Below, piece after piece: positions 22,260-55,516 of a DNA stretch of 64,000 nt (its first letter is position 1; each line of letters opens with the position of its first letter). The stretch is from UHGV virus genome UHGV-1366603. One strand, given 5' to 3'. Below the pieces are notes generated by a model. It worked only from the letters and a program-made list of their open reading frames with translations, was not told the DNA's origin and made no database searches. The position numbers and the translations under genes are program-made. The stretch is from a virus.

Positions 22260-23465
22260 TTATTTTGTACCCGCTTCCGCCTGTACGTCATCACGAGACG
22301 TCAGGTTAGCGTTAACGTGTACTGGGGCCTGAACCACACCACCGTATCTCTTGTGGAGATAACCGCTGTGCGGGTTATCTGCCGCGATGTGGTTTTGTAG
22401 GTTCTGGTTCGCTTGACTGATTGCGTTCGTGTTATTGTTAACTTGCTGTTTAAGCGCATCCAGGTTCTGTTGTACCTGATCGATTTTCTGATCGGTTTCT
22501 TGACCCTGTTGCTCTAACGCGGCAACACGCTGAATAACCTGATTCAGTTTTGTGTTTAAATCGTTGATGCTCTTTTGCAGTTGTAACACTAACGAGTTCA
22601 GGTTCGCTAACGCTAATGCCATTTTCTGGTAGTTTTGAGCAACCACGTTAAGTTGGTCGTTCCACGCTTCCAGAGAGTTGACAACAGCGTCAATACGCTT
22701 ACCTAAAGCTTCGTCCGCTTTCTTCAGTGCATTGATTTCCGTAATCGTTGCGTCGATAGCAGACTGGACGTCACGGATAAGCGCACGGATTTCAGTTTCC
22801 GTTAACCCGTTAACCTGATGGATATCAAGATGGTGAACGTTACCGGTTGAGTTAATGTGTGCATTTAAAGCGTCTAAGAAGTCATTTTTCAGGCTTTCTA
22901 AAATCGCTTTAATGTTCTCTAACTGTACTGCGTCACCAGAACTAATAGCATCTTTAATACCCGCCAATACGGTAATGATATATTCAAAACCGTAGATGTC
23001 ACCCACGTCTTTATACGTCGGTGCAGACGGGAATGTATCCGGTACGTTACGCAAGTCTTTAAACGCAATCGTACGGTTATCGAGGTTTAATTCAGCAATC
23101 GCCTGTTCGATAGCCACGATGTTCGCAGACTGTGGGCCACCAACGACCTGCGCAGATACTGTAATATCTGTTGGAATCGCTGTGTTAGTGACCACCACCG
23201 CCATAACAATCTCGCGGTTTTTAGTCAGCTTTTCATAAGTCGGGTGTGCAAAAATCAACTCATAATCGGTACCACGTTCGTAGGTTGCATCCGGTCGGTT
23301 AGCAACGCGTAAACGGAACGTGTCCGCAAAGAACGGGCCGTCAGGAAAAGCAAAAGCACGGTTTACTTTACCTGTACCTAACGTAATCTGACGCTCCACA
23401 GCGTTAGACGTTAGCGAGCCCGTTAAATCTAAAGGATATTGATAAACAATGGAGGCCATGGCCAC
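22260..23465 (-). CDS. Tail fibre protein with N-terminal anchor module and long coiled-coil shaft
   Basis: N-terminal FPDGPFFADTFRLRV...GTDYELIF resembles the N-termini of the three large upstream proteins; residues ~230-360 are heptad-rich (LNTKLNQVIQRVAALEQQGQETDQKIDQVQQNLDALKQQ). Confidence 0.6.
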   Translation of the reverse strand: MAMASIVYQYPLDLTGSLTSNAVERQITLGTGKVNRAFAFPDGPFFADTFRLRVANRPDATYERGTDYELIFAHPTYEKLTKNREIVMAVVVTNTAIPTDITVSAQVVGGPQSANIVAIEQAIAELNLDNRTIAFKDLRNVPDTFPSAPTYKDVGDIYGFEYIITVLAGIKDAISSGDAVQLENIKAILESLKNDFLDALNAHINSTGNVHHLDIHQVNGLTETEIRALIRDVQSAIDATITEINALKKADEALGKRIDAVVNSLEAWNDQLNVVAQNYQKMALALANLNSLVLQLQKSINDLNTKLNQVIQRVAALEQQGQETDQKIDQVQQNLDALKQQVNNNTNAISQANQNLQNHIAADNPHSGYLHKRYGGVVQAPVHVNANLTSRDDVQAEAGTK

Positions 23466-23499
23466 TCTCCTTTATTCGAGACGTCCTTGTCCCGAGTCA

Positions 23500-28683: not shown

Positions 28684-28715
28684 CGTAAAGACTCCTACTT
28701 TTAAATAAAATGGAT

Positions 28716-28740
28716 ACCCCTCCCCATTACAGGGAGGGGT
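28716..28740 (-). terminator. Intra-operon hairpin with U-rich tail (possible partial terminator or attenuator)
   Basis: On the minus strand, acccctccc-tgtaatg-gggaggggt is followed by atccattttatttaaaag, just before the RBS of the 1727-aa gene. Confidence 0.45.
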
Positions 28741-28777
28741 TACCTACGGACACACAACTGCCCGCAGGCAGCCTGTC

Positions 28778-31700
28778 CTAAGTACGATCCCCTAACTGCT
28801 TCCCGTTAAGTTCTCGTTTCAGTACAGAAAGTATCCATTTCCACGCTTTACTCGTGATATGGTACGGATTGCGTTTCTCCATTAAGAACTGCTTTTCACC
28901 GCTACGCAGTTCGAAGCTCTGCGCATTAAGCTGATCCTGACGAGTGCTTTGCTCATCAGTCACTTCTAACGAACAGGTAAAGTTAAGCTCGTAACCTTCA
29001 GGATTATTACCCGGCGGGTCTAAGACAATATAGATGTCCTGACCTACACGTAAATCCGTTGGAGTGATGGTAATCGCTTTACCCACATCGGCGTTAGTCG
29101 ACAGAGCAAACTCTGCACTATCGGTAGACGCTAAGAATGGGTCTTTCCCTGCGTCACCGATAATCACCTTACCCGGCCAGTTACTTTTTATCGTTCCTGA
29201 CACTCTTGCAATTCGGTACTGTTGTTTATCAACACCTTGTGCAAAACGGAGAATGAGTTTGTGACGATAACGACTTGCAGCAGCCTTAGTCGTACTCCAC
29301 TCGTTGTTCCAGGAAGTATGCAGTTCGTTTTTCTTCGCCATCAGCGCACCGCGAGACAGCTTACGGTCAAAGAACTGCGCAGGTAACTGCCCATCGTGAG
29401 AAACCGCAACGCTTCCCTGACCAGTTGGTAAAGCAATGCTTTCCGTAACGCGGTATTTTTGACTAATCTCATAAGTCGCAGGGTCAATCACAGACTGACT
29501 ATAATCAGCGTCTTTGTTATCAGCCAAATACCCAACGGATGAATCCAGATACGACTCAAACAGCGAACGTAAGTAATGATACTTATCAATGTTGATGTTG
29601 TTCGTAACCGGATCAATCAGCGCATGGCTAATCGTTACTCGGCATTTCGCACTCAGTTCTTTAAACGACAACCCTATTCCGTCACCGGTAAAATAATCCA
29701 CTAAGTCGAACGGGAATTGAATTTCCAACTGACGTTGTTTAACTGTCGTCGTCCCAAACTGCGAGAACGACAACGCTAAACGTAACACACGCGTACTCAC
29801 GTTATAGCGATAACGAATCATGCCACGAGGCGCATGGTTTGCAGAGATTTTATCTCGGGCGGCACCCCAACCAATCAAATCGAGAATCGCGGGGTTGGTT
29901 TCTTCACCGTTGAACAACACGTCCTTAAACGTTGCGTCAATCGCTGTTTCCCCAGACTCTTCCATTACCAACGGAATGTCAGTAACGTCTGAAACCGAAC
30001 GGGAACCAATCCCCAACTTACACTCTTTGGCCGTCAGGTCAATACGTACGTAACGACGCTTAACACTCGCACCTTGCGTTGACGTACACAGCACCAAATC
30101 CGGTGCAGCAGTAAGCGCTTGCGCCCCACCGACGTCGTCAACATCGAATGCAAACGAGCCTTCGAAGGTCGGTGCGTTGTTTTCTTTCGGGTTAAACGGT
30201 GTAAACCAACAATACGGCGTAGCACCTTCAGGTATCACAACGTATTGAAGACTGGATTTCACGTTTTGGTTGTGTGCGTAAGTATAAAGACCGCGACTGA
30301 CAAGATGGAAAACATCACCTGTACCGGCTGTTAACGCTTTCCTAAAGATACACGCTCTTGGTTCGGCAACAGCACGGTTTAATAACGGCAACCGTGGGTT
30401 ATCCGTTAACGCCCAGTCCACAGAACTGAGTCCGTGTGCTTTACGCGTGGCGATGTGTCCACTAACCTCGGCACTTTTCCCGAAATCAAACGTGGTTTCG
30501 AACCCAACTGTTTTATTCGCGTAATTCTCACCAGCAACAATATCAACGTAACCGATATAGCCACGTTCAGGATCAACTGCGATGCTCTGAATCGGTTCAG
30601 CACGCGAATATAGAGAGCCTGTGAGCATGTTAACGTACAGATAGTGACGAATCCCTACGTGCGTGGTAACAAACTCCTGGAGAAGCTCTACGCGCGTTTC
30701 AGGGCCACTGAAGTAAACAGGGTAATTCCCATCGTAAACTTCAAACTGTACCGCTGCGGACTTAGCCGTATCGCTACACTCAGCTTTAACCGCTACTGTG
30801 TAGTTTTCAACGTCCGATGACGTTTCGTACACTGCAACGAGCGGAGACTCGCCTGACGCTGCCAGGACACCGTTAATGTAAACCGTAACCGGACCGCCGC
30901 CCGCAGCATAAACCCAGAGCTTCGGTTGGTACGCCCTTACACGCGTTTTTGCCAATACCGTAACCACTGACTGGTCACCCATCTGCGTGGCAGTTTTACC
31001 CACCGGGACAGACTGGAACCCCATCAACGGCGGTTCTTCAATACCTGTCCAGTTGATTCCCGTACCGTTACTCACCTTACCCGTAGGCCAGGTCAGTTCA
31101 AGCTGGTTGTTCGGTGAGAACCAGTTAAACATCGGGGTGGTTTGCAGGTCAATCGCACCAGTAACGGTGCTGTCGCCTTTCGTCCCGTCCAGCAAATAGA
31201 AATATTTCAAATCCTGAACGGAGATTGACGTACCCTGGCTATTAAAACGCCAGTCCGCACCTTTCACAGCAGCGAAGTCAGTTACCGTGCCTTCTTTCGC
31301 GTTTGCAATTGCCGCAGCGACCACATCTAAACGTGCTGAAAGCTCTTTTAGGATGTTCGGTACCACTGCACGGTTTTCAACTAAGCCGTTCTGGTTAGTT
31401 GCGTAACGACCAATACCGTAAATCGTCTGCGAGGCTTTATAAATGCCTAACTCTGACCAGTCGTGATGGTGCCCGACGTCTGCTAAACCACTAACCGAAG
31501 CATTCAGTGCGGTCGACAACGGTTTGTCGAGGTCTGCGGTGTTATCCGCTTGCCCTAATCCCAGGTCAGCTTTCGTGATTGTCCTGGAACCGTCGTTCAT
31601 CGGCTTACCGTTAATCATGGTCGTTTTAGTCACGTACCCTGATAAGTCGGTTGAATACGGCGTTAATGATGCAGGCGTTGCAGCAACCCCAACCGTTTCT

Positions 31701-32962
31701 GTGCCTTTACCGGTTTTAAGCTTAACAACACCTTTTTCAGCGGTGGACGCTTTCGTTGGGTCGATAGTCCCCACGATAGGATCGGCACGAGAGCCTTTAC
31801 CGGTAAAACTAATCCCGTTACGGCCTTCGATATACACTTTGGAGTCATCAGGATCGCTACCGCCACTCCCGCCAGCATCAGGGTCTTGCTGATACTCCAT
31901 CAGCGCTGTGGTGGTCAACAACGGGTTACCGTTCAGGGTGAGTTTGTTCATCCCTAAAGCGTCGCCGGTTGACTCGATACGTAAGGTGTTTTTACCCGCA
32001 CGCCAGTTAATGTAACGTCCCGCACCTGTGCCTTCCAGATGCCCTACCGCTAATACCACAGAACCGTTGGATTTTAACGTAAAGCCATCATTCGCAAAAA
32101 TGATTTCTGACTCGCCGTTTTTCGAACGGAACTGTGCGCGGTTTCCTGACACCGTACAGTTAAACACACCCCGTACTTCCGAAGAAATCCAGTGAGAGAT
32201 ATACGTGTCGATAACCGACTGCGGTAAACGAAACGCTTTGAGTTCTTCCGTTAACGCTTTCAACTTTAACCCATACGCCATAAAGGTGTCGGGTGTTTTC
32301 AGGTTAACGGGATGGGCATTAATTTGTGCGCTCGTGGTTTCGTGCGGGTTCGTCGCGGCGATATGTGCTGGGTAGTTGAACGCTTCAATTTCTTTACCCA
32401 GCGCAGTCACTAACGCTTTAACTTCGGCTAATTTATCTTTAATTAGCTGGTTAGCATCATCGGTTTTCAGCTCAATATCGTGAATCGCTGACGCTAAATA
32501 TTTTTTGTTCAGCAAATCCGCCCAAGACGTTGCCGCAGGCGTAGCTGGATATAACGACGGCCTTCCGTCTAACAACAGCCAGTCTGCACTGACCGGGTTA
32601 TTCAAATATTTCACCAGCTCGTCGAGCATGTCAACGAACGGGTCGTAGAACGTACCGCCGAGCATTTGTCCTTCAAAGGTTACGATGCCTTTGATGGATG
32701 GGTTGATAAGGTGTACCCCACAATACACGTTGGCTGCTACCGAGTCATCCAGTTCCGTCAGCTGATATTGCAGTTCGTAGTCCACCCCACGGCTCAGTGG
32801 GGTGGTTGAACCTGGTTGTCTGACGACTAAATCTTCAAAGAACGGGCGATGGTCTAAAATCACCACCCGATCGTTGTTGTTTTCTGACCCGATGATACGC
32901 TCCTCTAAGAAGTGATTCTCGGTTTTCGTCCCCCGAGGATCGTAAGGATACGCTTTCATCAA
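28778..32962 (-). CDS. Large tail fibre / tailspike-like structural protein (1394 aa)
   Basis: N-terminal HRPFFEDLVVRQ...GVDYELQY anchor-like module; Gly/Thr/Ser/Asn-rich beta-type composition. Confidence 0.6.
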   Translation of the reverse strand: MMKAYPYDPRGTKTENHFLEERIIGSENNNDRVVILDHRPFFEDLVVRQPGSTTPLSRGVDYELQYQLTELDDSVAANVYCGVHLINPSIKGIVTFEGQMLGGTFYDPFVDMLDELVKYLNNPVSADWLLLDGRPSLYPATPAATSWADLLNKKYLASAIHDIELKTDDANQLIKDKLAEVKALVTALGKEIEAFNYPAHIAATNPHETTSAQINAHPVNLKTPDTFMAYGLKLKALTEELKAFRLPQSVIDTYISHWISSEVRGVFNCTVSGNRAQFRSKNGESEIIFANDGFTLKSNGSVVLAVGHLEGTGAGRYINWRAGKNTLRIESTGDALGMNKLTLNGNPLLTTTALMEYQQDPDAGGSGGSDPDDSKVYIEGRNGISFTGKGSRADPIVGTIDPTKASTAEKGVVKLKTGKGTETVGVAATPASLTPYSTDLSGYVTKTTMINGKPMNDGSRTITKADLGLGQADNTADLDKPLSTALNASVSGLADVGHHHDWSELGIYKASQTIYGIGRYATNQNGLVENRAVVPNILKELSARLDVVAAAIANAKEGTVTDFAAVKGADWRFNSQGTSISVQDLKYFYLLDGTKGDSTVTGAIDLQTTPMFNWFSPNNQLELTWPTGKVSNGTGINWTGIEEPPLMGFQSVPVGKTATQMGDQSVVTVLAKTRVRAYQPKLWVYAAGGGPVTVYINGVLAASGESPLVAVYETSSDVENYTVAVKAECSDTAKSAAVQFEVYDGNYPVYFSGPETRVELLQEFVTTHVGIRHYLYVNMLTGSLYSRAEPIQSIAVDPERGYIGYVDIVAGENYANKTVGFETTFDFGKSAEVSGHIATRKAHGLSSVDWALTDNPRLPLLNRAVAEPRACIFRKALTAGTGDVFHLVSRGLYTYAHNQNVKSSLQYVVIPEGATPYCWFTPFNPKENNAPTFEGSFAFDVDDVGGAQALTAAPDLVLCTSTQGASVKRRYVRIDLTAKECKLGIGSRSVSDVTDIPLVMEESGETAIDATFKDVLFNGEETNPAILDLIGWGAARDKISANHAPRGMIRYRYNVSTRVLRLALSFSQFGTTTVKQRQLEIQFPFDLVDYFTGDGIGLSFKELSAKCRVTISHALIDPVTNNINIDKYHYLRSLFESYLDSSVGYLADNKDADYSQSVIDPATYEISQKYRVTESIALPTGQGSVAVSHDGQLPAQFFDRKLSRGALMAKKNELHTSWNNEWSTTKAAASRYRHKLILRFAQGVDKQQYRIARVSGTIKSNWPGKVIIGDAGKDPFLASTDSAEFALSTNADVGKAITITPTDLRVGQDIYIVLDPPGNNPEGYELNFTCSLEVTDEQSTRQDQLNAQSFELRSGEKQFLMEKRNPYHITSKAWKWILSVLKRELNGKQLGDRT

Positions 32963-32972
32963 AAAATTCTCC

Positions 32973-35900
32973 TTAATCGCGAATGATTACCGCCTGCACT
33001 TTATTGTTGGTGTCGATAAACGACATTACGCGCTCCTTGTTAAGATAAGGAGGTATCGGTAACGCAGCGTAATCCGCCAGGTTGTTATTAAACTCGGTTG
33101 CCACTAGCGCATTAAGCGTTTCGGGGTCTGAGCTTGTCCCGGCCAATTCCATGACACGTACACGATTTAACGAGGAGTAGTTGCTAATATAATCCAGCAG
33201 CGTACCGTAGAGTTTGTTCCCGGTTATGCTGTCTGCCGTAGAACGGATATTAGCACGCACTTCGTCCTCATAAAGTCCCCCTAAACCGTAGTAAATAGGG
33301 GTGTACGGATCGTTAACGATAGGTGCAATATTGAACCCGGTTAAACGGTCGCTTAGTGGGATTTTCTGCGTAGTGCCGCCTGCTGCTGTACAGCTTACGT
33401 ATTTATCTACCGCAGACAAGTACACCACGATAGTGTAAACGGTACCTGCTAAGGTCAGCGATGCGTTAAACGTTAAGTCGTTATTCGCACCACGCGTGTG
33501 TGTAAAAGTCACATCGGGTTGTAACGTACTCCACGGTGCAGGTGTAACACGTTTGGTGGGCGTGAAGCCTAACACCACAGATTTCCCGTTACCGAAGTTT
33601 AAACCAAACCCGGCGTAACAATACTCGCCGTTGCTATCAGTTAACCGATAACCACGGGTGACAAGTAACGACAACCGCATAAACTCGCCATCGGTGTTTT
33701 TCCAGCAACCCAGGACGGTTTCTAGCACCGTTCCGGTTTTTGCGTTGCTTTCGGTTTCCCAACTGACTCGCATCCCCGCATTGTTAAATACTGGGAACAA
33801 GTTGTGGATAAACCCGTGAACGTTATCACTTACCCCTTTCGCATCAAACACCCACTTCGACGCAAGCTGGTCGTATTTCACACCATCGAGTGCTTTATAT
33901 CCACCGCCAACCACATAACGCCAATCTGCCTCGCCACGCACAACCGCTTGAAGTCCAGAAGCCCAGCAGGGCGCACCTACTGTTAAATTGCTTAACCCCA
34001 GCACTGCACGCGGAGCAGAACGCTGAATATGTGCGTTGTCATTAGCGACGTGGTCTTTCAATTCACGGAAATCGCCTAACCGTGTCACGTTACGTAGTTC
34101 AGTAACGAACACTTCAGAAAGGTCGTTAATACCGATCAGCCCCACGCGCGTCATGGTATCCGTTTCAGCCTGACTGTAGCTGTCGTGAATAATATACTTC
34201 GCTTTGTTATCGACAATGTCAACAAAAATCCCTGCGTAAATTTCCTTATTCAGATTCGGGAAACGTTCAGTGACGTTAACCGACATCAACGGCACGTCGT
34301 ACGTTTCGCCGCCAATGAAATACGTGGAAGCAGGAAGTGTCACCAGGATTTTGTCTTTAACCGTAACGTCAATTAGGTCGTTACCGGACTTACCAAAGCG
34401 AATAATGTCAACGCGAGCACCCGAGTCAACCCCACCGACGGTATTCTCCAAATCTTCAATCTGGGAAGTCTGCGCCATCACCACACTACCATCGAGTGCT
34501 AAGGTGACATCATCCACATCCAGACCGAACTTAATCAGACCCCGTTTCGTGGTGTCTGCGTTTTCAACACCGAACACAGAAGACGGGTGTTGGTGAACCT
34601 TCGGTGAGTATTTGTCTAACTCAGTCTGTTGTGCAACAGAAATCGGTAAGTCAACGTCCGGGGTATTCGCAACGTTACCTAAACCAAAGGTAATTTTGTC
34701 GATAGTAACCGAACTGGTAAGCTGCATGTCGTTGATGTACGACTTGGCAGCAACCAACTTACCAGTAAACTCTGCGTCCAGTTTTTCAATTAGCGCAGGA
34801 GTCGCCGCGAGGTTTTCAGCCGTACCAAACTCGTCAGTCAACTGCCAACACGCTAACGTAGTAACGTCTTCGGCAACCGGAAGGATAAACGTTGCGACAA
34901 ACGGCGATGCTTTAATCCCGCTACCGGTAAGTTCCACCGTAGACGTCGACGCACCGTAGAACAGACCTGTACCGCCTGCGGTATTACCCGGCAAATACGG
35001 ACCGACCGTAGTGGGGTCTAAGAGCTTCTTACCACGCCACAACAATCCACGGTCATCGGGGTATAGCACAAGCTGGTTACCGCCTGCTTGTAACGTAACA
35101 GGGTTATTACCCACGTTAACATCGGTAGAACCTTGACCGATGAACTTAATGGATTTCGGATCAACGACGAACTGGGCACCTAAACGTTTTTCGTCAACTA
35201 CACCAGGTGCTTTCTTAATGGTAACCGTGTTACCTTTGTTTTGCGAACTAATAGAGACGCCGTCAGCAACATTATTGATCAGCGATTTAAAGTGATGCTG
35301 ATTCTCTAATGCTTCTAACGCAGCGTCCATGTTATCGAAGTTAATCCGGGAGCTATACGTTTTACCGTTTAAGCTAATAACGGCGTCAAACACGTTCCCT
35401 GTACGCTTCAGTTGAAAACGCAGCGTAAAATCCCCATCCGGTATTGCTGGATCAGGAGCTTGAGAAATGTACCGAACTGACGGTACCGGATTCCCGTAAC
35501 CGTGCAACGACAGTTCGATAGTAAGAGTACCACTCCGGACTTCACCGAAAATCTCTACGTACTTACCGGAGTTACTACCGGGATTTTCGTAGAAACGTAA
35601 ACCGGCCCTACCGACTGCCTCATTACCAGACGCTGTTTTACGTCCAGTAACAATAAAGTCAATATCTTGCAGGCTGGCGGGTACCGCGTTAAAAGAAGCA
35701 CTAAATCCATTCTTCGTTCCTGTGTAACGAAGTGCGCCGTGATACGTGCGACCTTGACTAACATAGCTTTCGCTAAAATAAGGATTCACGTATTTAGACA
35801 TCGAAACCGGATCAACTTCTGTCGTGAACGAAGTAAAACCGGATAGCGTTCCAATGGTTCCGTCGGCCGTTTTCGTAGTTGACGTGCGCAGTAGTTTCTT

Positions 35901-37295
35901 TTGCGCAGTCAATGTTGCTTGCGTTGGATACTTAGCATTAACATAATCTGTTAACTGCGGCTTCGTTTTTCCGTAAGCTAACGCTGCATCCGTCGCAATA
36001 CCATTCAACTCTAACGCACGAATCGGGCCCCAAGTGTCAGCGTGTGGGTTATCCTTACGAGTGACGTGTTCGTGTGCAGGGGCGTTGCGATAGAGTTGTT
36101 CTACTAACTGATGGTACTTAACGATTAGCTGATAAACGTCATTACTTACGTCGGCTTCTGGCGCACCAGGTAACGCAAGGAATTGAGCGTAATCGTTTTC
36201 AGCCGCCCACCAGTTTAAGTTAACGTTGGTTTTGTATTTCAGCCACTTCGCAACGTCGGTTTTGCTGTAACCTGCTGAGAATTCGTCTGGCGGTGTGTCA
36301 ACGTTAAACGTATAGTCCATGGACTGTTTGTTAGTCGTTACCTCGATAACGTATACACCATTACCCGGCTGACGAACGACACTAAACGTTAACTCGCCTT
36401 TTAATTCATCGTCGGTCAAACCGTTGATTAACGTATAATCGTAATCGGTCGAACCACTGCCTAACGCAACCGTTAGACGTAGGCCGATTTTACGTTGTTT
36501 TAATTGGAGACGAAGGATACTTGCGCCACCGTTCGCGTAACACAACATCCAATCGATTTGTTCGTTCGGATTAATACTCCCCATATTCGGAAAAATAGCC
36601 GGAATGCGGTATTTCATCGACAGGGAATATTCATTTAACGTGGTGGTTTTGTACGTAACAGAGAAACGACGTTTAGCGGTATTGTAAGTATACCCACCTT
36701 TGTTGTCGTACGTTGCGTACTGTTCAGACGTGATAACCGTGCCATTAGCGCGATGCTCGATATCTAACGTGTTACGTGCAATCGGGTCTACCCGATTCAC
36801 CACGTTACCTAACGAATCACCTAAGCCTGCAATGGCCTGCATTAATTCCAGTTCACCTTTCCAGTTTTCCCAGTCAAACTGAATATCAACCGGTGGAAAG
36901 TAAACGTCTCCGATAACGGTATCCCATTGACACGCAGACGGGTATTTATCTTTATTGAGTTCGCGTTCTGCGGTAATCTGTTCTTGGGTCGCTTCACCAC
37001 AACCTACGGCGTGGTAATCTACCGTGAAATTCGATTTGTATTTGTCGTTAACAATCCAAATCATCCCGTGCACGAGATAGGCTGTGCGCAACATACCGGT
37101 CTCGTACGGGTGTGTAATAACGTAATCGTCGCCTAAGGTCAGTATTTTGCCGCCGCTCTTGACCACCAGGGATGTGGTGAAAAAAGGGGCGTGGGCAGGT
37201 ACCAACATTCGGTACTTCGTACCAATGACGGCGACCGCTTCACCGGTTATTTTATTCCCCGGTTCTTTGAAGTGTGGGTCTAGGACGACAGCCAT
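32973..37295 (-). CDS. Large tail fibre / tailspike-like structural protein (1440 aa); first gene of the operon in this window
   Basis: N-terminal AHAPFFTTSLVVK...GDDYVITHPY module; RBS aggag upstream; divergent from the + gene at 37363. Confidence 0.6.
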   Translation of the reverse strand: MAVVLDPHFKEPGNKITGEAVAVIGTKYRMLVPAHAPFFTTSLVVKSGGKILTLGDDYVITHPYETGMLRTAYLVHGMIWIVNDKYKSNFTVDYHAVGCGEATQEQITAERELNKDKYPSACQWDTVIGDVYFPPVDIQFDWENWKGELELMQAIAGLGDSLGNVVNRVDPIARNTLDIEHRANGTVITSEQYATYDNKGGYTYNTAKRRFSVTYKTTTLNEYSLSMKYRIPAIFPNMGSINPNEQIDWMLCYANGGASILRLQLKQRKIGLRLTVALGSGSTDYDYTLINGLTDDELKGELTFSVVRQPGNGVYVIEVTTNKQSMDYTFNVDTPPDEFSAGYSKTDVAKWLKYKTNVNLNWWAAENDYAQFLALPGAPEADVSNDVYQLIVKYHQLVEQLYRNAPAHEHVTRKDNPHADTWGPIRALELNGIATDAALAYGKTKPQLTDYVNAKYPTQATLTAQKKLLRTSTTKTADGTIGTLSGFTSFTTEVDPVSMSKYVNPYFSESYVSQGRTYHGALRYTGTKNGFSASFNAVPASLQDIDFIVTGRKTASGNEAVGRAGLRFYENPGSNSGKYVEIFGEVRSGTLTIELSLHGYGNPVPSVRYISQAPDPAIPDGDFTLRFQLKRTGNVFDAVISLNGKTYSSRINFDNMDAALEALENQHHFKSLINNVADGVSISSQNKGNTVTIKKAPGVVDEKRLGAQFVVDPKSIKFIGQGSTDVNVGNNPVTLQAGGNQLVLYPDDRGLLWRGKKLLDPTTVGPYLPGNTAGGTGLFYGASTSTVELTGSGIKASPFVATFILPVAEDVTTLACWQLTDEFGTAENLAATPALIEKLDAEFTGKLVAAKSYINDMQLTSSVTIDKITFGLGNVANTPDVDLPISVAQQTELDKYSPKVHQHPSSVFGVENADTTKRGLIKFGLDVDDVTLALDGSVVMAQTSQIEDLENTVGGVDSGARVDIIRFGKSGNDLIDVTVKDKILVTLPASTYFIGGETYDVPLMSVNVTERFPNLNKEIYAGIFVDIVDNKAKYIIHDSYSQAETDTMTRVGLIGINDLSEVFVTELRNVTRLGDFRELKDHVANDNAHIQRSAPRAVLGLSNLTVGAPCWASGLQAVVRGEADWRYVVGGGYKALDGVKYDQLASKWVFDAKGVSDNVHGFIHNLFPVFNNAGMRVSWETESNAKTGTVLETVLGCWKNTDGEFMRLSLLVTRGYRLTDSNGEYCYAGFGLNFGNGKSVVLGFTPTKRVTPAPWSTLQPDVTFTHTRGANNDLTFNASLTLAGTVYTIVVYLSAVDKYVSCTAAGGTTQKIPLSDRLTGFNIAPIVNDPYTPIYYGLGGLYEDEVRANIRSTADSITGNKLYGTLLDYISNYSSLNRVRVMELAGTSSDPETLNALVATEFNNNLADYAALPIPPYLNKERVMSFIDTNNKVQAVIIRD

Positions 37296-47308: not shown

Positions 47309-47917
47309 ATGAACGAAATTACTTTGGTTCGTTTTATTGAAGCGATGCATCTAAACGAAGCTAATCCGCACTCTCCGTTATTCATCGATTTAATGGAGGA
47401 AGAAGTCGAAGGGTTCTTAGCGTACCCGCGTTTGAAAGACTACTTCGAACGTAAAACACCAACCGCTTACGAAAAGCTGATGTACGCGTTAGATAACCGT
47501 ACTACGCTAAACAATACGCCGTTTAAAGCGCTGGAAGCAATAGACCCTACCGGGGGTGCAGGTATCCCACAACGTGTTGTGTTCTACTACATCGACAACG
47601 GACGTATTAAAGCCGACGTTGTAAACTGGATCTCCGAAGGGGAAATCCCAGAAACGCGTACTTTTAACCTCTGTCCGGTAGAAGAAGGTTGGGTTGCAGG
47701 AACGCATTATTCCTATCCGTATCAAAGCATCAAATCACCTTATCTGTATCCGGTGTATTTAGATGACGTTACGCCAGGGAAATGTATTCCCGTTACCAAT
47801 CTGATTTGTTTACTGACGATGGAAGTTGTTGCGTCGGACGCAGGCCAGGCTTGGGTTGAGCAATCGAAGAATATCCAAAACTGGCAGGAGATGGGTTACA
47901 AACTCTATCAGCCGTAA
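47309..47917 (+). CDS. Hypothetical protein
   Basis: 202-aa ORF with RBS aaggaaa; no phosphoesterase (Mre11/SbcD) motifs seen. Confidence 0.5.
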   Translation: MNEITLVRFIEAMHLNEANPHSPLFIDLMEEEVEGFLAYPRLKDYFERKTPTAYEKLMYALDNRTTLNNTPFKALEAIDPTGGAGIPQRVVFYYIDNGRIKADVVNWISEGEIPETRTFNLCPVEEGWVAGTHYSYPYQSIKSPYLYPVYLDDVTPGKCIPVTNLICLLTMEVVASDAGQAWVEQSKNIQNWQEMGYKLYQP

Positions 47918-47924
47918 TACCACG

Positions 47925-47974
47925 AGAGAACCTTCGGGTTCTCTCCCTTCTCTTTTATTTTTTTTTCTTTTTAC
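47925..47974 (+). terminator. Intrinsic terminator
   Basis: Hairpin gagagaacc-ttcg-ggttctctc followed by a T-run longer than 15 nt. Confidence 0.75.
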
Positions 47975-48002
47975 ACCACGCTCCGTGAATATGGAGGTGG
48001 AC

Positions 48003-50507
48003 ATGTTAAAAGTTGAACGTATTGTACTTAAAGGATTTACCGGAATGGGATTACACGAAATCGAAACCTTCGATTTTACTATCCATTCCCCGACCACCAT
48101 TATCCTCGGTGGTAACGGGTGCGGTAAGACCAGCTTACTGTCCGTGTTTCTACCTATCGCACCTTCGAAATCCGAATTCCGTGACGGGGGTTCTTACACC
48201 AACATCTGTTTGGTTAACGACCATCGTTACAAATTTAAGGTTGCACGTAAAGGCAACTCACTGGTTTGCGATATCGAGAACCTGACGACGGGTACCAAAA
48301 TCGTCGAACAAGGTAATGCGAAAGTGTATAACTCTCGTGTAGAAGAAATCACGGGCATTACAAAAGAGATTAAAGAGTTACTGAACGGAGAAGTGCTTTT
48401 AACGGATGCAGGAACGGAGCTGCGTCGTAAGTGGTTCTACCGTTTAAGTACGTCAGACTTAACTTACGCGTTAGGTTTTTATCAACGTTTACGAAAAAAC
48501 CTGACGATGCTAAACGGTGGTATTGAAATCACCAGCCGTAAAATTGCAGAGTTGCGTACCCGCGTAATTGATAACGAGGAAGAACGTCAGCAGTTAGCAA
48601 CACGGTTAAAAGCATTAGAAGTAGATTTACGTGAACTCAACAAACAGATTGAACAACTGCCTGGTCTGAATCGTGACGTTACGGTGGCAACTATTCAATC
48701 GCTATTGCTTAAAATCGAAGCACCGATTAATGCTATCTTGGAACACCGTGGCGGATTACCTACGGAAGAACAGGTAGAGGAAGCACGACGGATTGAAGCC
48801 ACTGCCCGTGAAGCGGTGGTCTCTGCTGAAACAGAACTATCCATGCTAAACAAAGATTTGTCTTTGTTGATGGACGAGTCCACTCGCCAAGATTACCTGA
48901 TGCGGAATCACGAGGGGTTAAAAAACACGGTTGCGAAACTGCGCGAGTTATTAAAGCAGTGGGACACTGAGCATCTTTTCCCTGAACTGTTTGCGGAGAC
49001 CGTTAACATCGACCAGCTTAAAGCAGCGACGGATGCGCGTGTCTGGGGACAACGTTTAGGAACAACGCTGGATGCTATTAAATCAACGGAACGGTTGAAC
49101 GTACTGGAAGAGAAACTGTTGACCTTAGACCAAAACTCATCTGGGTTGCGTGACCGGTTACAACGCGTTGAAAACGTATTGCAGAACCTCAACCACGAAC
49201 GGAATCACTATTTGGAAACTGCCGAGGTTGATTGTCCGCAGTGTCAATTTAAATTCCGTCCGGGTGTCCGTCGATCGCTGCCTGAATTGGAAGAAGCCAT
49301 TCGTGGTCAGATGGAGCAACGTAATACGTTACAGACTCAACTTGATTCCGTATTGCGAGACCGTACGGAATTAGAGTCAGACGTTAATTACATGCGTCAA
49401 GTACGGGAAATTGTTTTAACATACTCGAAAGACCCGGTATTGAGCTTGTTCTTTAAACGACTCCAGGAGCGGAATGTCTTTACGGATAACCGTAGTCAGT
49501 TTGGTAGTTTGTGCGCAGAGTTTGATCGTGAACTTTATTCTGCAATTGAGTACCACGAAACGAAACACCGTTTCGCTAAAGCGGAAAAAGAGTGGGAAAA
49601 TGCAGTTGCAGCGGTAGGTAACGTTGACGGTGCACTACAGCAGAAAATTGCCTTCCAGCAGGAACGTTTGGGTAAGGCAACAGAAACGCTCTCAGAGCGC
49701 CGTAGAGAGCACGCAGTTGCTAATGATACCTTTTGTTATCTAAACGAACTTAAAGCCACTGTAGACAATTTTAATGCGGTTTTTGAGCGTTTAGAGAACG
49801 ATGTTAAGGTAACATTAACCAACACGGTGGTCGAAACGTTATTAAACGCCCGAGAAAACAAGTTGGATGCGTTCACCACAGCACGGGAACGGTACCGTCA
49901 GATGGAAAACGAACTCAACCAACTTACTGCGTTAGAAAAGGAGTTATCAGATTTACAAGCGCAGCAATTCAATAACAAGCTGATGATTCAAGCGTTCTCA
50001 CCTGAGAAAGGGGTATTACGCAAATACTTCTACAACGCTATCGTGAGAATCACGGAATTGATGACGCGGTATATCGAACAAGTCTGGACCTACCCTATGC
50101 GGGTCATGCCGTGCGACTTAACCGACGGTGACTTAGACTACACGTTCCCAGTGCAGTTGAAAACCCATCCTGAGCCGGTACCTGACGTGCGGAAAGGGTC
50201 GAAAGCGCAGCGAGCCATCTTTAATTTGATGTTTCGTTTAACCGCTTACAAAGCCCTGAAACTTCATCAGTATCCGCTACTGTTGGATGAACCGTCAGAA
50301 GGGATGGATGAGGAACACCGAAATAACCTCGTCGGGTTTATTAAAACCCTGGCGAATTCCGGTGAGTTCTCTCAGTTACTGGTGGTATCTCACGAAGCAG
50401 AAATTCATTCAAAACTTAACGAAGCCGCATACTGTGTTATTGAACCTGAAGGCGTAACACTGCCTGCGGTATACAACGAGGGAGTAAAAATTGTCTACGC
50501 AAACTGA
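48003..50507 (+). CDS. SbcC/Rad50-like SMC-family ATPase
   Basis: Start trimmed to ATG 48003 (RBS ggaggtgg). Walker A GGNGCGKTS; long central coiled coil with CPQC zinc-hook-like motif; C-terminal LLLDEPSEGMDEEH (Walker B) and VVSHE. Confidence 0.7.
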   Translation: MLKVERIVLKGFTGMGLHEIETFDFTIHSPTTIILGGNGCGKTSLLSVFLPIAPSKSEFRDGGSYTNICLVNDHRYKFKVARKGNSLVCDIENLTTGTKIVEQGNAKVYNSRVEEITGITKEIKELLNGEVLLTDAGTELRRKWFYRLSTSDLTYALGFYQRLRKNLTMLNGGIEITSRKIAELRTRVIDNEEERQQLATRLKALEVDLRELNKQIEQLPGLNRDVTVATIQSLLLKIEAPINAILEHRGGLPTEEQVEEARRIEATAREAVVSAETELSMLNKDLSLLMDESTRQDYLMRNHEGLKNTVAKLRELLKQWDTEHLFPELFAETVNIDQLKAATDARVWGQRLGTTLDAIKSTERLNVLEEKLLTLDQNSSGLRDRLQRVENVLQNLNHERNHYLETAEVDCPQCQFKFRPGVRRSLPELEEAIRGQMEQRNTLQTQLDSVLRDRTELESDVNYMRQVREIVLTYSKDPVLSLFFKRLQERNVFTDNRSQFGSLCAEFDRELYSAIEYHETKHRFAKAEKEWENAVAAVGNVDGALQQKIAFQQERLGKATETLSERRREHAVANDTFCYLNELKATVDNFNAVFERLENDVKVTLTNTVVETLLNARENKLDAFTTARERYRQMENELNQLTALEKELSDLQAQQFNNKLMIQAFSPEKGVLRKYFYNAIVRITELMTRYIEQVWTYPMRVMPCDLTDGDLDYTFPVQLKTHPEPVPDVRKGSKAQRAIFNLMFRLTAYKALKLHQYPLLLDEPSEGMDEEHRNNLVGFIKTLANSGEFSQLLVVSHEAEIHSKLNEAAYCVIEPEGVTLPAVYNEGVKIVYAN

Positions 50508-50691
50508 TTGGTGGCGTCAGTTACTAAGCGTTTTAGGGTTTAGCGTCATGGTGCTGGTTGCCATTCTGTACGTGCTATTTTGTATAACGGCGATTTTATG
50601 GGTGGTCTTAGCGTACGCGATTAGACTCGCCTGGGGTTCAATTTGGCACCAACGCGAATGTGAGTGGCGGTGTGTTGGAGGGAAGTCATGA
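50491..50691 (+). CDS. Small membrane protein
   Basis: TTG start with RBS ggag; hydrophobic stretch LLSVLGFSVMVLVAILYVLFCITAILWVVLAYAI. Confidence 0.4.
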   Translation: MSTQTDWWRQLLSVLGFSVMVLVAILYVLFCITAILWVVLAYAIRLAWGSIWHQRECEWRCVGGKS

Positions 50692-50798
50692 TTGAGGGTA
50701 TTCTGTTAACACTTGGGTCGTTGTGGATTATTGGGAAATCCCTCAACTGGCTGATTAATAAGTACGGATGGGCTTTCAAAGGCTCTACGCACAGTTAA
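50688..50798 (+). CDS. Small hydrophobic peptide (36 aa)
   Basis: ATGA overlap with the previous ORF; MIEGILLTLGSLWIIGKSLNWLINKYGWAFKGSTHS. Confidence 0.25.
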   Translation: MIEGILLTLGSLWIIGKSLNWLINKYGWAFKGSTHS

Positions 50799-50848
50799 GT
50801 TAGAACCCCCTCCTGGGTAACTGGGAGGGCGTTTTACGAGGGAAAACC

Positions 50849-50977
50849 ATGACTGTTGTCAATACTACCAATGCTGCAATTGGCGCTTTATACAACGCGG
50901 AACTAACATGGGGTGCGGGTTTTATCACCGTACTGCTTCTCGCCGCAGCCGCTTTTATCATTGGACGTTGGTTTTAA
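50849..50977 (+). CDS. Small hydrophobic peptide (42 aa)
   Basis: RBS gagggaaaacc; MTVVNTTNAAIGALYNAELTWGAGFITVLLLAAAAFIIGRWF. Confidence 0.3.
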   Translation: MTVVNTTNAAIGALYNAELTWGAGFITVLLLAAAAFIIGRWF

Positions 50978-51010
50978 TTTCATCTTTTTTGCGTCTGTAA
51001 GGTCTGATAA

Positions 51011-51454
51011 ATGGAAATTTATTTGTTGAACGCACTTTCTAAAATCGGTGAAGAACAAGCGAAAGATTTACTCGCACTTCATTACCGTTACTTAGATCAT
51101 CAAGCAACGATGCTGAAAATCAAAACCGCTGTACCGAAATTAAACGTGCGTCAACTGATCGAAGGCAACTGTGTTGTTCTGATTTATATCGACGATGTTG
51201 CGGTGGGTTATTGCAGTTACCGCAATCGCAACGGGGTACTCAAAATTCGTTCGTTATACGTGCTGCCTGATTACCGTCAACGCGGGGTAATGAAAGAAAT
51301 CTTCAAAGCGATAGCCGCTGATGAAGCATTCGGTGAAATTGCCATTGGGATGTACACGAAGTGCAAAGAAGCGAAAGAGTATTTCATTCGTCGTGGCTAC
51401 AAAGCAACCTATTCTCACGATAAAGAATGGGTGGATTTCAGCAAAACTTTCTAA
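51011..51454 (+). CDS. Possible GNAT-family acetyltransferase
   Basis: 147 aa; LYVLPDYRQRGVMKEIF loosely fits GNAT motif A; weak. Confidence 0.4.
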   Translation: MEIYLLNALSKIGEEQAKDLLALHYRYLDHQATMLKIKTAVPKLNVRQLIEGNCVVLIYIDDVAVGYCSYRNRNGVLKIRSLYVLPDYRQRGVMKEIFKAIAADEAFGEIAIGMYTKCKEAKEYFIRRGYKATYSHDKEWVDFSKTF

Positions 51455-51520
51455 AACAATAAAGGCTCTCTTGACGTTCCTCACTATGAGTGTGAGATTT
51501 TTACGTCAGGAGAGCTACTT

Positions 51521-51757
51521 ATGTTAAACAGTTTCGGTGTAGGTGGAATGGATACAAGCATTTGCTGGAAAGAATACGAACGCGCAAAAGCATTTCTCCA
51601 GCATCCCAACGTGGGTAAGATCGGTCAGGTGTGTTTTGGTAAACCTGAACTGACGGCCTGTATTCAAGGTGCGTTAGGAACGCTGCCACCTGAATCACCT
51701 TTCGAGCCTAAGGAGAATCCAGATGTTACCAGGAACCCAAACCCCGTATCTATTTAG
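51521..51757 (+). CDS. Hypothetical protein
   Basis: 78-aa ORF. Confidence 0.4.
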   Translation: MLNSFGVGGMDTSICWKEYERAKAFLQHPNVGKIGQVCFGKPELTACIQGALGTLPPESPFEPKENPDVTRNPNPVSI

Positions 51758-52097
51758 TGAACCACTGGATAACAGCGACATCTTACAAATCTGTTATCAG
51801 TGTCACGAAATCGGTGGTAGCGAACTTACGCGGATTAATAAACTACTGTGGCTGATTCCAGAAATCGAATTACCGTTCGTTAAACCGAGTTTGTGGCGTC
51901 GTGGTGCGTGTCGTGAAGCGTATATGCTGTCAAAATTTAACATTAATCTGGAGAAAGTCTGGGAGAAAATGAATGATGCTCAAACCCGAGAACAGATTAC
52001 GCACACGCTGGAATTGCATCTTGCCATGAAACGCCTCGGTCTTGAGCATGAAGGGCTAGAGTCCGTTATCAGTCAATGGGTGAAAAGGAATCGTTAA
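51723..52097 (+). CDS. Hypothetical protein
   Basis: 124-aa ORF overlapping the previous by 35 nt. Confidence 0.4.
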   Translation: MLPGTQTPYLFSEPLDNSDILQICYQCHEIGGSELTRINKLLWLIPEIELPFVKPSLWRRGACREAYMLSKFNINLEKVWEKMNDAQTREQITHTLELHLAMKRLGLEHEGLESVISQWVKRNR

Positions 52098-52170
52098 TGT
52101 CTAAAACGTATATAGCGATTTTGGTTGAGTTAGCGATTGGCGGAACGCGGTTTATCCCTGTGCATCAATT

Positions 52171-52695
52171 ATGCTTACCTCACTCGGTAAGACCGTTATG
52201 CTAACGATACTTCCAGAATCGGTTATTGACAACGACCTGTTTAACGCCCCTGAGCGCTTCAAGGTCGTTACGATAAATTGCGTAGGGGCAATGGGTCGGG
52301 GTATCGCTTTAGCGTGCAGAGAACGCTATCCTGGGCTTTATCAGGACTACCGGGAACGTTGCTTCGCTAACGAAATACGAATAGGGAATGTGTACGTTTA
52401 TCCCGAGGAAAACTGCATTCTCTTACCAACCAAAACACATTGGAAACTAAAATCCCAGGTTTCTTATGTTATCGCGGGTATCACCGCGTTGGCAGATGCC
52501 GCAGAAAACTTAGAGGGTGGGGTGGCTTTACCGCCGTTAGGGATGGCTAACGGTTGGTTGACAAAAGCTGAACGTCAACAAATCTTTTTGTTTATCGAAA
52601 AGAAACTCGTACCGAGGAGACAACATTACCGTTTCTATTTACCCGATACGCTTTATCAAGAAGCAAAACCTTTAATTCCAAACCTTTTTAAATAG
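52171..52695 (+). CDS. Hypothetical protein, possible macro-domain-like (ADP-ribose binding/processing) fold
   Basis: VVTINCVGAMGRGIALACRERYPGLY resembles the N-x-V/G-x-M-G-x-G-I-A stretch of some macro-domain families; recognition from memory only. Confidence 0.35.
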   Translation: MLTSLGKTVMLTILPESVIDNDLFNAPERFKVVTINCVGAMGRGIALACRERYPGLYQDYRERCFANEIRIGNVYVYPEENCILLPTKTHWKLKSQVSYVIAGITALADAAENLEGGVALPPLGMANGWLTKAERQQIFLFIEKKLVPRRQHYRFYLPDTLYQEAKPLIPNLFK

Positions 52696-52795
52696 ATATT
52701 ATCATTAGGGCACACAACAAAGGAGTTCCAGCTGTCCGCGCCGTGATTTCGTTCTACGGAACACGGAAATGTATAAATCCAACTGGAGAACTAGT

Positions 52796-53482
52796 ATGTT
52801 TCGTATTTTCTTTCTTTTACTGGTAACACTTTTCGCGTTTAACGCATACGCATCCAAATCCGCACCCAGTGCCAAACACCATCGTGAATTCGAAATGATT
52901 CAAGACCGTTTCGAACGTGTAAAACCGTTGATTGTGGAAATCTCCCGAAAGCAGGGCGTCGATCCTAAGTTGATGACCACGCTAATCTATCGGGAATCGC
53001 GGTTTAATCCGAAGGCGTATAATCGAACGTCTAAAGCGCACAGTCTGGTTCAGATGCTACCGAGCACAAAGCGTAATTTGCTAAAACTCTACGGTGCCGA
53101 AATCGGACTTAGTCGTAACGCGGATTTGTATAATCCTCGTAATGCGGTGCTATTGGCTTCCGTCTACGTTAAACATTTAGAAAAGGGGTTGACTAAACGA
53201 CTCAAACGCAAGCCCACTATTGCAGAAATTGCATTGGCTTATCACTGGGGTGAAAGTGGTGCACACGCCAGGATTAAAAGCAAGTCTCGGGCAGCACAAC
53301 GAGAAATGGCGAGCTTTATGAAAGATGCAACGTTCTACAGTGCGAAAATCGACAAGCCTGTAGCATCTCGTCAGCTTGCGTTTGCGAAGAAACCAGAACG
53401 CCAGATTCAGTTAGCGGAAGTTAACCGAATTTGGGATACGATAAACACCAGTTTTCCATTTAAACAAGGAGTCACCCTTTGA
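52796..53482 (+). CDS. Lytic transglycosylase (SLT domain) with signal peptide
   Basis: Start at ATG 52796 (RBS ggaga). Signal peptide MFRIFFLLLVTLFAFNAYA; catalytic-region pattern LIYRESRFNPKAYN...AHSLVQMLPST...AYHWGE typical of SLT-type transglycosylases. Confidence 0.7.
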   Translation: MFRIFFLLLVTLFAFNAYASKSAPSAKHHREFEMIQDRFERVKPLIVEISRKQGVDPKLMTTLIYRESRFNPKAYNRTSKAHSLVQMLPSTKRNLLKLYGAEIGLSRNADLYNPRNAVLLASVYVKHLEKGLTKRLKRKPTIAEIALAYHWGESGAHARIKSKSRAAQREMASFMKDATFYSAKIDKPVASRQLAFAKKPERQIQLAEVNRIWDTINTSFPFKQGVTL

Positions 53483-53988
53483 GCATCGTTGTAACCGATT
53501 GGTATAAAGGTATCACTAAGGCTACCCAAATTACTGCCCAGGACGTGTACAGTATCGTTCGTAGCAGTAACGAAGACCAGATAAAGTCCGACGAAGACTT
53601 TGCAACGCGTCATGAGTTTTACGATGCCCTTAAAACGGCTTTCGGTGATGACGAAGAAGAAGGTTTAGAGTTTGACTGGAACGTCAACCTTGCCTTGTTG
53701 TGGATTTGCGGATTACGTCCGAGTGTGAAAGACACGGAGCAAGGGAAAGTTCTGTTGTGGCGCTACACCGGTAAATACAATCCGAACCAGGTCTTTAAAG
53801 AAGCGTATATGGAAGCCACTGTAGAGTTACAGAATCTGCTGTTGGGTGAGAACACCTACTGTCAACGCAGCTTCCTGACGATTCTGGAGAAACTGGCGAC
53901 TACACACAAAATCTGGCGTCAAGCAGATGCCCCTGAACACATCTTCGTTCTGGAATATGCTGTGATTCCAAACCAACCGTTCTTTTAA
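53479..53988 (+). CDS. Hypothetical protein
   Basis: 169-aa ORF with TTG start overlapping the upstream stop. Confidence 0.4.
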   Translation: MSIVVTDWYKGITKATQITAQDVYSIVRSSNEDQIKSDEDFATRHEFYDALKTAFGDDEEEGLEFDWNVNLALLWICGLRPSVKDTEQGKVLLWRYTGKYNPNQVFKEAYMEATVELQNLLLGENTYCQRSFLTILEKLATTHKIWRQADAPEHIFVLEYAVIPNQPFF

Positions 53989-54051
53989 TACTTGCCCCTA
54001 ATCCGATTGGATTAGGGGTACTTTTATTTATTCCCCTAAAGGAGCAAAGGT

Positions 54052-54531
54052 ATGTTGAAGTTTATCTGGCGTTACCCAACCCGCTTTTGGTTCGTGGTAT
54101 TAGAGGTAATCACCGTTTTACTGTTAGTGACGTTCGTAAACGCCTCTACGAAACAAATGGTGATTTTCTGTGTATTCGTGGCTATACCGCTGTGGGTGTT
54201 TGCAAAGATTATTAAGTTTTACATGATAAGCTGGGCGAACTACACCTGTCCATTTAAACCCAGAGAAATCATGAACTGGTTGATGTATATCGAAGACCGT
54301 TTACCCGCTCAGTCTAAAACGTTAGGTTGGCAATCGATGTTGGATATTGCGCTAGAAACAAACGCAAAATTCCCTGGGTCAAAGAATCCTTATTTGCTGC
54401 TGGCTGTTATTGTTGCCCAGCAGAAACGTGCAGGCGAACGTTGGTTACCGAAAGAAGCGAAAGAGTATATTCGTAAACATCCGAAGGCTTTCTATTCCGT
54501 AGGTCAATGGCGTAACCTCCCACTCTTTTAA
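54052..54531 (+). CDS. Hypothetical membrane protein
   Basis: Two hydrophobic segments (FWFVVLEVITVLLLVTFV; MVIFCVFVAIPLWVFAKII); RBS aaaggag. Confidence 0.5.
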   Translation: MLKFIWRYPTRFWFVVLEVITVLLLVTFVNASTKQMVIFCVFVAIPLWVFAKIIKFYMISWANYTCPFKPREIMNWLMYIEDRLPAQSKTLGWQSMLDIALETNAKFPGSKNPYLLLAVIVAQQKRAGERWLPKEAKEYIRKHPKAFYSVGQWRNLPLF

Positions 54532-54583
54532 CTTTTTACAAAACCCTTAGTTGATTTGAACAAACCTAAAGAGGACTATTAAA

Positions 54584-55516
54584 ATGACTTTTCCATCTGA
54601 AGTAATTTACGAACTGGCTAACACACTGCGCCGTCGTTATAACTACCATATGCTGCAAACCAGCGTAGGTGCAACCGCTACCTTTCTGCGCAACCATTTC
54701 CTAGGCAGTAATCAATCTTCAATTACGCAGGAAATGGTTTTCTCTATCGATCGAACCACCAAAATTCTTCCGATTGACAGTGCAATTGCGGTTCAAAATG
54801 GTGATATGTTCAACTTCTCCATGGGAATGCGCCATACAACCGTTACTGTTGACCCAAACGTAGGGATCGAACATTCTTTCATGCGCAACCCGTATCCTCT
54901 CCCGGATAGCTGGTTCGTTGTTGTAGAACAAGGGGTGAATCAGTACGAAGTTGTTGCGGCACGCGACGAGTCTTTCTTTGACTTGGGGCAGATTTCGCGC
55001 CGCCTGGAAATTGCTCTCGAACTTCGCCAAGGCAATATCGGATTAAATGGGGGCGTCGTCTACTTCATCCTGAGCAACTGGGCGCATGTGAGCTACGTCC
55101 TGAGAAAAGCTGACGCAACGTTCCACGCAACAGAAGTAAATTACCTCTCCGCTGAGAATGAAGATCAAGACGAAGAAGAAACCGTCCCTGGTACAGAAGT
55201 CGCCGTTTGCGAAGACTACGATGATCTGAAATCTGTGCTTGTTAAGCGCGATGTTTTCGAATCGTTAAACCTGGATTTCCCTGGTGACGAAAATGAAATA
55301 TCCGTAGCTGACCTGGTAGAAGCATTGTGTCAGAAAGACCAAGCTAATGAAATCAGTGACGAAGAAGCGGAACTCTTCCAAGTTCAACAACTCGTCAGCA
55401 AGGTTATCGGCGGCCAGGAAATCGTTGACACCCTTATGGCTTTACCAGCGAAGAAACGCACTCAAAAGTACATTCGTGAACTGGTTCTTAAAAATCTGGG
55501 TCAAACCAAAAAGTAA
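54584..55516 (+). CDS. Hypothetical acidic protein, paralog of 55577..56125
   Basis: Shared N-terminus (MTFPSEVIYELA vs MFPSSEYLTHLA) and motif GGVVYFILSNWAHV vs GNTVYFIFRTWNDV. Confidence 0.5.
   Translation: MTFPSEVIYELANTLRRRYNYHMLQTSVGATATFLRNHFLGSNQSSITQEMVFSIDRTTKILPIDSAIAVQNGDMFNFSMGMRHTTVTVDPNVGIEHSFMRNPYPLPDSWFVVVEQGVNQYEVVAARDESFFDLGQISRRLEIALELRQGNIGLNGGVVYFILSNWAHVSYVLRKADATFHATEVNYLSAENEDQDEEETVPGTEVAVCEDYDDLKSVLVKRDVFESLNLDFPGDENEISVADLVEALCQKDQANEISDEEAELFQVQQLVSKVIGGQEIVDTLMALPAKKRTQKYIRELVLKNLGQTKK

Follow-up and report, generated by a model that had tools for sequence, protein, structure and literature searches.

The viral DNA analysed here, a stretch of 64,000 nucleotides from the UHGV virus genome UHGV-1366603 (referred to as the window), encodes a stand-alone DarG-type macrodomain protein, and its gene very probably represents an orthologue of AdfM that serves as a counter-defence against DarTG2. 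AdfM, or 'anti-DarT factor macro', is a DarG2-like macrodomain that roughly half of the chimalliviruses encode (Morgan et al., Cell Rep 2026, PMC13309987), and the name has been given to PhiKZ gp104, PhiPA3 gp108, Goslar gp83 and Asesino gp217 (PMC13309987). PhiKZ gp104 strips DarT2-made ADP-ribose from a TNTC single-stranded DNA oligonucleotide in vitro, rescues DarT2 toxicity, is required for growth on DarTG2 hosts and enters the phage nucleus (PMC13309987). Nuclear localisation by microscopy has been reported for AdfM of Asesino, PhiKZ and PhiPA3, with import being PicA-dependent; enzymatic activity and the anti-DarT2 phenotype have been demonstrated on the PhiKZ/PhiPA3 side of the family only, the published result for Asesino gp217 being its localisation (PMC13309987). 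This kind of gene is thus already known, its function having been published in 2026, and the window gene adds a further member to the family.

The initial annotation of the window had described a possible macro-domain-like protein at positions 52171-52695, where an open reading frame is indeed found on the plus strand, the product of which contains the quoted stretch VVTINCVGAMGRGIALACRERYPGLY. The macro-domain assignment was borne out by DarG profiles, by the predicted structure and by the conserved catalytic residues, with the start corrected to 52198 (Table 1). This ATG, rather than that at 52171, is most likely the true start, because full-length homologues are nearly all 161-166 aa long and begin at the second methionine (MLTILPES; 60 database homologues), because a relative with 92% identity (L002) has ATA in place of the ATG at 52171 but retains that at 52198, and because the frame of the extension upstream of 52204 displays no synonymous and 11 non-synonymous differences from the same relative. 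On these grounds the longer product of 174 aa from ATG 52171 was dropped, and the macrodomain as translated probably does not include the extension. Comparison of the macro gene itself with the 92%-identical relative revealed 28 synonymous and 14 non-synonymous changes, corresponding to a dN/dS of 0.12, and it is therefore a functional coding gene under purifying selection.

A conserved 35-codon open reading frame was also observed immediately upstream, the ATG of which overlaps the stop codon of the preceding gene (TAATG) and the stop codon of which overlaps the macro gene start (ATGCTAA); translation of this frame and of the macro gene may be coupled. The frame is under purifying selection, with 7.5 synonymous and 3.5 non-synonymous changes from the 92%-identical relative, the remaining two frames being either broken or not conserved. 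The N-terminus of its product is similar to SPN3US gp071, and the frame was left out of the gene calls in the related contig.

Table 1. Coordinates of the AdfM-like gene of the window, of its putative ligand-binding elements and of the adjoining upstream reading frame.
Feature	Position	Strand	Basis
AdfM-like gene, single DarG-type macrodomain, 165 aa plus TAG stop	52198..52695	+	Open reading frame, homologue lengths, DarG matches, SPN3US/Asesino orthology
27-nt 5' extension of the longest open reading frame (9 codons)	52171..52197	+	ATG lost in relative, homologues without extension
Putative ADP-ribose-binding loop 1, N27-C-V-G-A-M-G-R-G35	52276..52302	+	Alignment to DarG
Predicted catalytic lysine motif T78-K79-T80-H81-W82, equivalent to Taq T79-K80-K81-H82-W83	52429..52443	+	Alignment to PTKKHW
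Putative ligand-grasping loop 2, P112-P-L-G-M-A-N-G-W120	52531..52557	+	Equivalent to Taq P114-P-L-G117-A-G119-N120-G121-G122
Conserved 35-codon upstream open reading frame, MSKTYIAILVELAIGGTRFIPVHQLCLPHSVRPLC	52097..52204	+	dN/dS 0.12 in own frame

Profile searches established that the window protein is a DarG-type macrodomain. The Pfam Macro family (PF01661), a search of which had been proposed in the initial annotation, was found at E 0.0014 over residues 34-128 (profile positions 3-107 of 118), with a score of 19 bits against a gathering cut-off of 22, so that on its own this match is equivocal; several closer homologues have a precomputed PF01661 match. In PHROGs the protein was assigned to phrog_335, labelled 'phosphatase', at 4.8e-30. 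DarG was the sole match in the PADLOC library (3e-31, profile positions 6-150 of 329), and antitoxin_DarG was likewise the sole match among NCBIfam profiles (5e-31, positions 7-154 of 338), at 108 bits as compared to an equivalog cut-off of 250, both DarG profiles being matched over their N-terminal macro half only. When the single sequence was searched against the PDB, DarG of Mycobacterium tuberculosis (5m3i, 2.5e-20), DarG of T. aquaticus (Taq DarG; 5m31, 5.8e-18) and DarTG of T. africanus (7omu, E 1e-10) were retrieved. With a family profile built from 33 homologues with identity down to 34% (A1), these values became 6e-38 for 5m3i, 2e-35 for 5m31 and 5e-23 for 7omu, the next class being human TARG1 at only 5e-6, followed by viral and Poa1p macrodomains at 3e-4 or weaker. 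A match to Hailong HalA (9nyi, E 0.004) in the single-sequence PDB search was discarded as chance because it was absent from the family-profile search. No further macro domain was identified when all six frames of the window were searched.

Structure prediction, which had likewise been suggested as a check on the initial annotation, was in agreement with the profile searches. The AlphaFold2 model built on the A1 alignment (pLDDT 94.4, pTM 0.90) has the three-layer alpha/beta/alpha macro fold. At E<=0.001 it matched 214 PDB entries, and the best 50 of these 214 were mostly macrodomains. The top Foldseek match was Taq DarG in complex with ADP-ribose (5m3e; E 6e-14, TM 0.78/0.84, rmsd 2.1 Å), and ranks 1-4 were all occupied by DarG structures (5m3e, 5m31, 5m3i and 7omu), TARG1 being next. 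Both profile and structural matches to macro domains were thus obtained for a protein which the initial annotation had assigned from a single N-terminal stretch.

The residues that line the ligand pocket of DarG were mapped onto the window protein (165-aa numbering) from the PDB-search alignments, taking into account that the PDB chain numbering of Taq DarG runs 10 ahead of that used by Jankevicius et al. 2016, an offset confirmed with the ligand contacts given there. In Taq DarG these contacts are N8, L9, T20, N22, V31, Q34, T79, G117, G119, N120 and G121, and G117, G119, N120 and G121 hydrogen-bond ADP-ribose; K80A is inactive, N22A has the next strongest effect, K29E reduces activity, and stacking of W83 on thymine has been proposed (Jankevicius et al. 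2016). The claim of the initial annotation that the N-terminal stretch resembles an ADP-ribose-binding loop was confirmed, as VVTINCVGAMGRGIALACRERYPGLY aligns with the first such loop of DarG, containing the ligand-contacting T20, N22, K29 and V31 (Taq numbering), and the above E values for 5m3i and the PADLOC DarG profile exceed chance similarity by far. Within this part of the protein Taq T20 corresponds to T25, N22 to N27 and K29 to R34; N27 is by alignment also equivalent to N23 of PhiKZ AdfM, the substitution of which by alanine reduces activity (PMC13309987). In the central motif Taq T79, K80, H82 and W83 correspond to T78, K79, H81 and W82, and in the second loop G117, G119, N120, G121 and G122 correspond to G115, A117, N118, G119 and W120, such that three of the four hydrogen-bonding residues of Taq DarG are kept. 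Conservation among the 33 homologues is pronounced at these positions, with T25, N27, V29, G30, A31, M32, G33 and G35 of the first loop region, T78 and K79 of the lysine motif, and P112, L114, G115 and G119 of the second loop being invariant, and N118 and W120 nearly so.

Departures from Taq DarG were noted at three of the mapped positions. Taq Q34 is replaced by Ala39 in the window protein and by Ser in PhiKZ AdfM, and Taq G119 is replaced by Ala117, an alanine that is also present in the active PhiKZ enzyme. The position following the conserved loop 2 glycine is occupied by Trp120, which is nearly invariant in the SPN3US/Erskinevirus clade, whereas DarG and PhiKZ AdfM have Gly (GMANGW as compared to GAGNGG and GCANGG, respectively). 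In Asesino gp217 (L003, 4995-5495), and in one further homologue (P0034), His replaces the loop 2 Asn that corresponds to Taq N120, giving GMAHGW in place of GMANGW.

Orthologues of the window gene occupy the same syntenic position in SPN3US (gp070) and Asesino (gp217). Genes matching the window protein were detected by tblastn in 246 phage records, the best matches being to SPN3US-like jumbo phages of Salmonella and E. coli at approximately 65% identity and to Erwinia jumbo phages at 56-63%; SPN3US gp070 is approximately 65% and Asesino gp217 62.8% identical to the window protein, and the annotated coding sequence under the latter match is exactly that of the published Asesino AdfM (YP_009290835.1). 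Identity to PhiKZ gp104 is 34% (E 5e-27). The neighbourhood of the macro gene is colinear with those of SPN3US and Asesino, the order being an SMC/SbcC-like gene, small open reading frames, a GNAT acetyltransferase gene, two to four hypothetical open reading frames and the macro gene, followed by a transglycosylase gene, hypothetical open reading frames and a virion structural protein gene on the minus strand. A megablast search with positions 50500-54600 against 50,697 phage records returned no match, and the window therefore derives from an undescribed relative of the SPN3US-like and Erwinia jumbo phages. Membership of the chimalliviruses is suggested by the synteny with SPN3US and Asesino, both of which are listed with a demonstrated nucleus-like compartment, SPN3US encoding the chimallin homologue gp244 (PMC9365700, PMC13282480); the main text of Prichard et al. 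2023 (PMC10299810) makes no mention of SPN3US, Asesino or macro. Among the 20 open reading frames of the window that were covered, neither chimallin nor PicA was identified, and with PADLOC and PHROGs the ten open reading frames flanking the macro gene gave no match to DarT or another toxin, nor to other defence components save for the ATPase similarity described below.

Several further features of the window and of the records consulted deserve description. Elsewhere in the window are genes for tail-fibre and baseplate proteins, for giant virion proteins that are paralogous to one another and for a ribonuclease of the RNase H-like type. The SMC/SbcC-like ATPase gene (47826-50507, plus strand; phrog_77, 1.8e-91) also matches the defence ATPase profiles LmuB (1e-16) and mad3 (7e-10), which most likely reflects generic SMC/ABC-ATPase similarity; its longest reading frame begins at a TTG located far ahead of the conserved region, and the true start is probably later. 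Two adjoining radical-SAM domain reading frames of 440 and 307 aa, both assigned to phrog_1802, are located at 17772-20001 (minus strand), and four paralogous virion structural genes of 401, 1727, 1394 and 1440 aa at 22260-37295 (minus strand), cross-matches of the latter to PHROGs 2163, 7449, 8078 and 7557 indicating a large paralogous family. In Salmonella phages SPFM1, 5, 6, 8, 12, 14, 15 and 20, 'hypothetical proteins' of 111-152 aa (P0049-P0060) are composed of parts of the macro protein in reversed order, with the C-terminal ones leading. These were rejected as biological gene fragments and are regarded as annotation artefacts, since other records of the SPFM series contain the gene intact. 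They account for odd matches that reach 90-95% identity but span 11% of the query. Three homologues (P0005, P0008 and P0012; 65-78% identity) reside on contigs of 79-243 kb that were deposited as Salmonella enterica assemblies, which suggests jumbo-phage genomes carried along in the sequencing of bacterial isolates; a preprint exists on persistent virulent phages in isolates.

The orthology with Asesino gp217 and the published function of the PhiKZ homologue support the proposal of the initial annotation that the protein could reverse an ADP-ribosylation-based host defence, while its alternative proposal, that NAD-derived signals might be processed, found no support. By analogy with these AdfM proteins, the substrate would be ADP-ribosylated thymidine (T-ADPr) in single-stranded DNA. 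Upon infection of a DarTG2 host, DarT2 would attach ADP-ribose to thymidines of phage DNA that is single-stranded. Loop 1 (N27 to G35) and loop 2 (G115 to W120) of the macrodomain would form the pocket that binds this ADP-ribose, Lys79, the counterpart of Taq DarG K80, would cleave the bond between ribose and thymine, and replication and packaging could proceed on the restored DNA. As judged from Asesino gp217 and PhiKZ gp104, the window protein probably enters the phage nucleus by import, and cleavage would probably take place there.

The closest solved structures, all of them of DarG (5m31, 5m3e, 5m3i and 7omu), share with the window protein the fold, the ligand loops and the equivalent Lys (K80/K79), Asn (N22/N27) and Trp (Trp83/Trp82). 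In contrast to the DarG (DarG2) antitoxin of DarTG2, to which it is approximately 31-32% identical, the window protein comprises 165 aa rather than about 330-400 aa, and possesses neither a C-terminal DarT-binding domain nor an adjoining DarT gene. Since the C-terminal domain is missing, the protein would act enzymatically only, without sequestration of DarT, and this absence together with the lack of a DarT neighbour points to an orphan, purely enzymatic antitoxin; being phage-encoded, it would be employed as a counter-defence, unlike cellular DarG. With AdfM it has in common the stand-alone DarG2-type macrodomain of approximately 160 aa, the jumbo phage origin and the conserved active-site Asn and Lys, whereas, besides the Trp-ended loop 2 that it shares with SPN3US and the Erwinia clade, it is without the acidic insertion of approximately 12 residues that precedes loop 2 in PhiKZ gp104. 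Other phage anti-DarT factors also neutralise DarT but are unrelated proteins with different mechanisms: orphan NADAR antitoxins of T4-like phages reverse the guanine ADP-ribosylation by DarT1 of DarTG1 (PMC11825919), AdfB of ICP1 acts by direct binding to DarT rather than as a hydrolase (PMC11481870), and AdfA of RB69/T4 is a further such factor.

It is quite improbable that the protein is instead a generic housekeeping macrodomain, such as an ADP-ribose-1''-phosphate phosphatase, an O-acetyl-ADP-ribose deacetylase or a TARG1-like protein mono-ADP-ribosyl (Glu/Asp) hydrolase, which might for example reset modifications introduced by a protein ADP-ribosyltransferase of phage or host. Homologues carry labels such as 'putative Appr-1-p processing protein', 'phosphatase' or 'protein-ADP-ribosylation protein', the weaker sequence and structure matches include TARG1 and Poa1p, and macrodomains are often promiscuous; these labels are however inherited annotation and do not represent tests, and the 'phosphatase' and 'Appr-1-p processing' labels were set aside as evidence. 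Human TARG1 (C6orf130; 4j5q, 4j5r, 4j5s) belongs to the same macrodomain subclass, has an equivalent catalytic lysine and also removes T-ADPr and U-ADPr, yet it is only 17-18% identical to the window protein, the position of its Asp125 is taken by the invariant Gly119, as in DarG, and in the A1 search of the PDB DarG is at least 30 orders of magnitude ahead of both TARG1 and Poa1p. The DarG profiles being the sole PADLOC and NCBIfam matches, and the experimentally characterised homologue working on DNA (PMC13309987), also argue against a housekeeping role, as does the genomic setting, where neither a further macro domain (six frames of the window) nor a DarT or toxin-type match (ten neighbours) was found. 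That the protein is an ADP-ribose 'reader' devoid of catalytic activity, or that the gene is decaying and currently functionless, is a very remote prospect: while the Pfam Macro score falls below the gathering threshold and two ligand-loop substitutions are present relative to Taq DarG, the catalytic Lys, the Asn and the loop glycines are invariant in homologues with identities down to 34%, the dN/dS is that of a constrained gene and the model is confident and complete.

An enzyme that removes ADP-ribose from nucleic acid with another target, be it RNA (uracil-ADPr or another RNA ADP-ribosylation by a host toxin) or differently modified DNA, is just as improbable as a housekeeping macrodomain. 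In that case the clade-specific Trp120 would reflect an altered specificity, and both the Trp120 and the Ala39 substitutions are predicted to lie in the ligand pocket. DNA is not the sole possible substrate, because macrodomains of the DarG and TARG1 types act on RNA U-ADPr in vitro, as seen with Taq DarG, SCO6735 and TARG1, all of which hydrolyse U-ADPr on single-stranded RNA; Taq DarG is nevertheless less efficient on U-ADPr than on T-ADPr, the nuclear Asesino orthologue is placed with phage DNA (PMC13309987), and no phage defence that ADP-ribosylates RNA uracil is cited in the literature consulted. It is also conceivable, given that Trp replaces the last loop Gly and that the contact made by Gln34 is absent, that the SPN3US/Erskinevirus AdfM clade including the window protein is a functional variant with a substrate range different from that of DarG2 and PhiKZ AdfM, although we consider this unlikely; if so, candidate substrates would be RNA, a different ADP-ribosylated base or whatever a divergent enterobacterial DarT produces.

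With its score below the Pfam threshold, the gene is missed by standard Pfam annotation, and a metagenomic protein that is 99% identical to the window protein carries no annotation in the database. The presence of a probable AdfM counter-defence gene in an SPN3US-like jumbo phage would aid the prediction of host range on enterobacteria that carry DarTG2.
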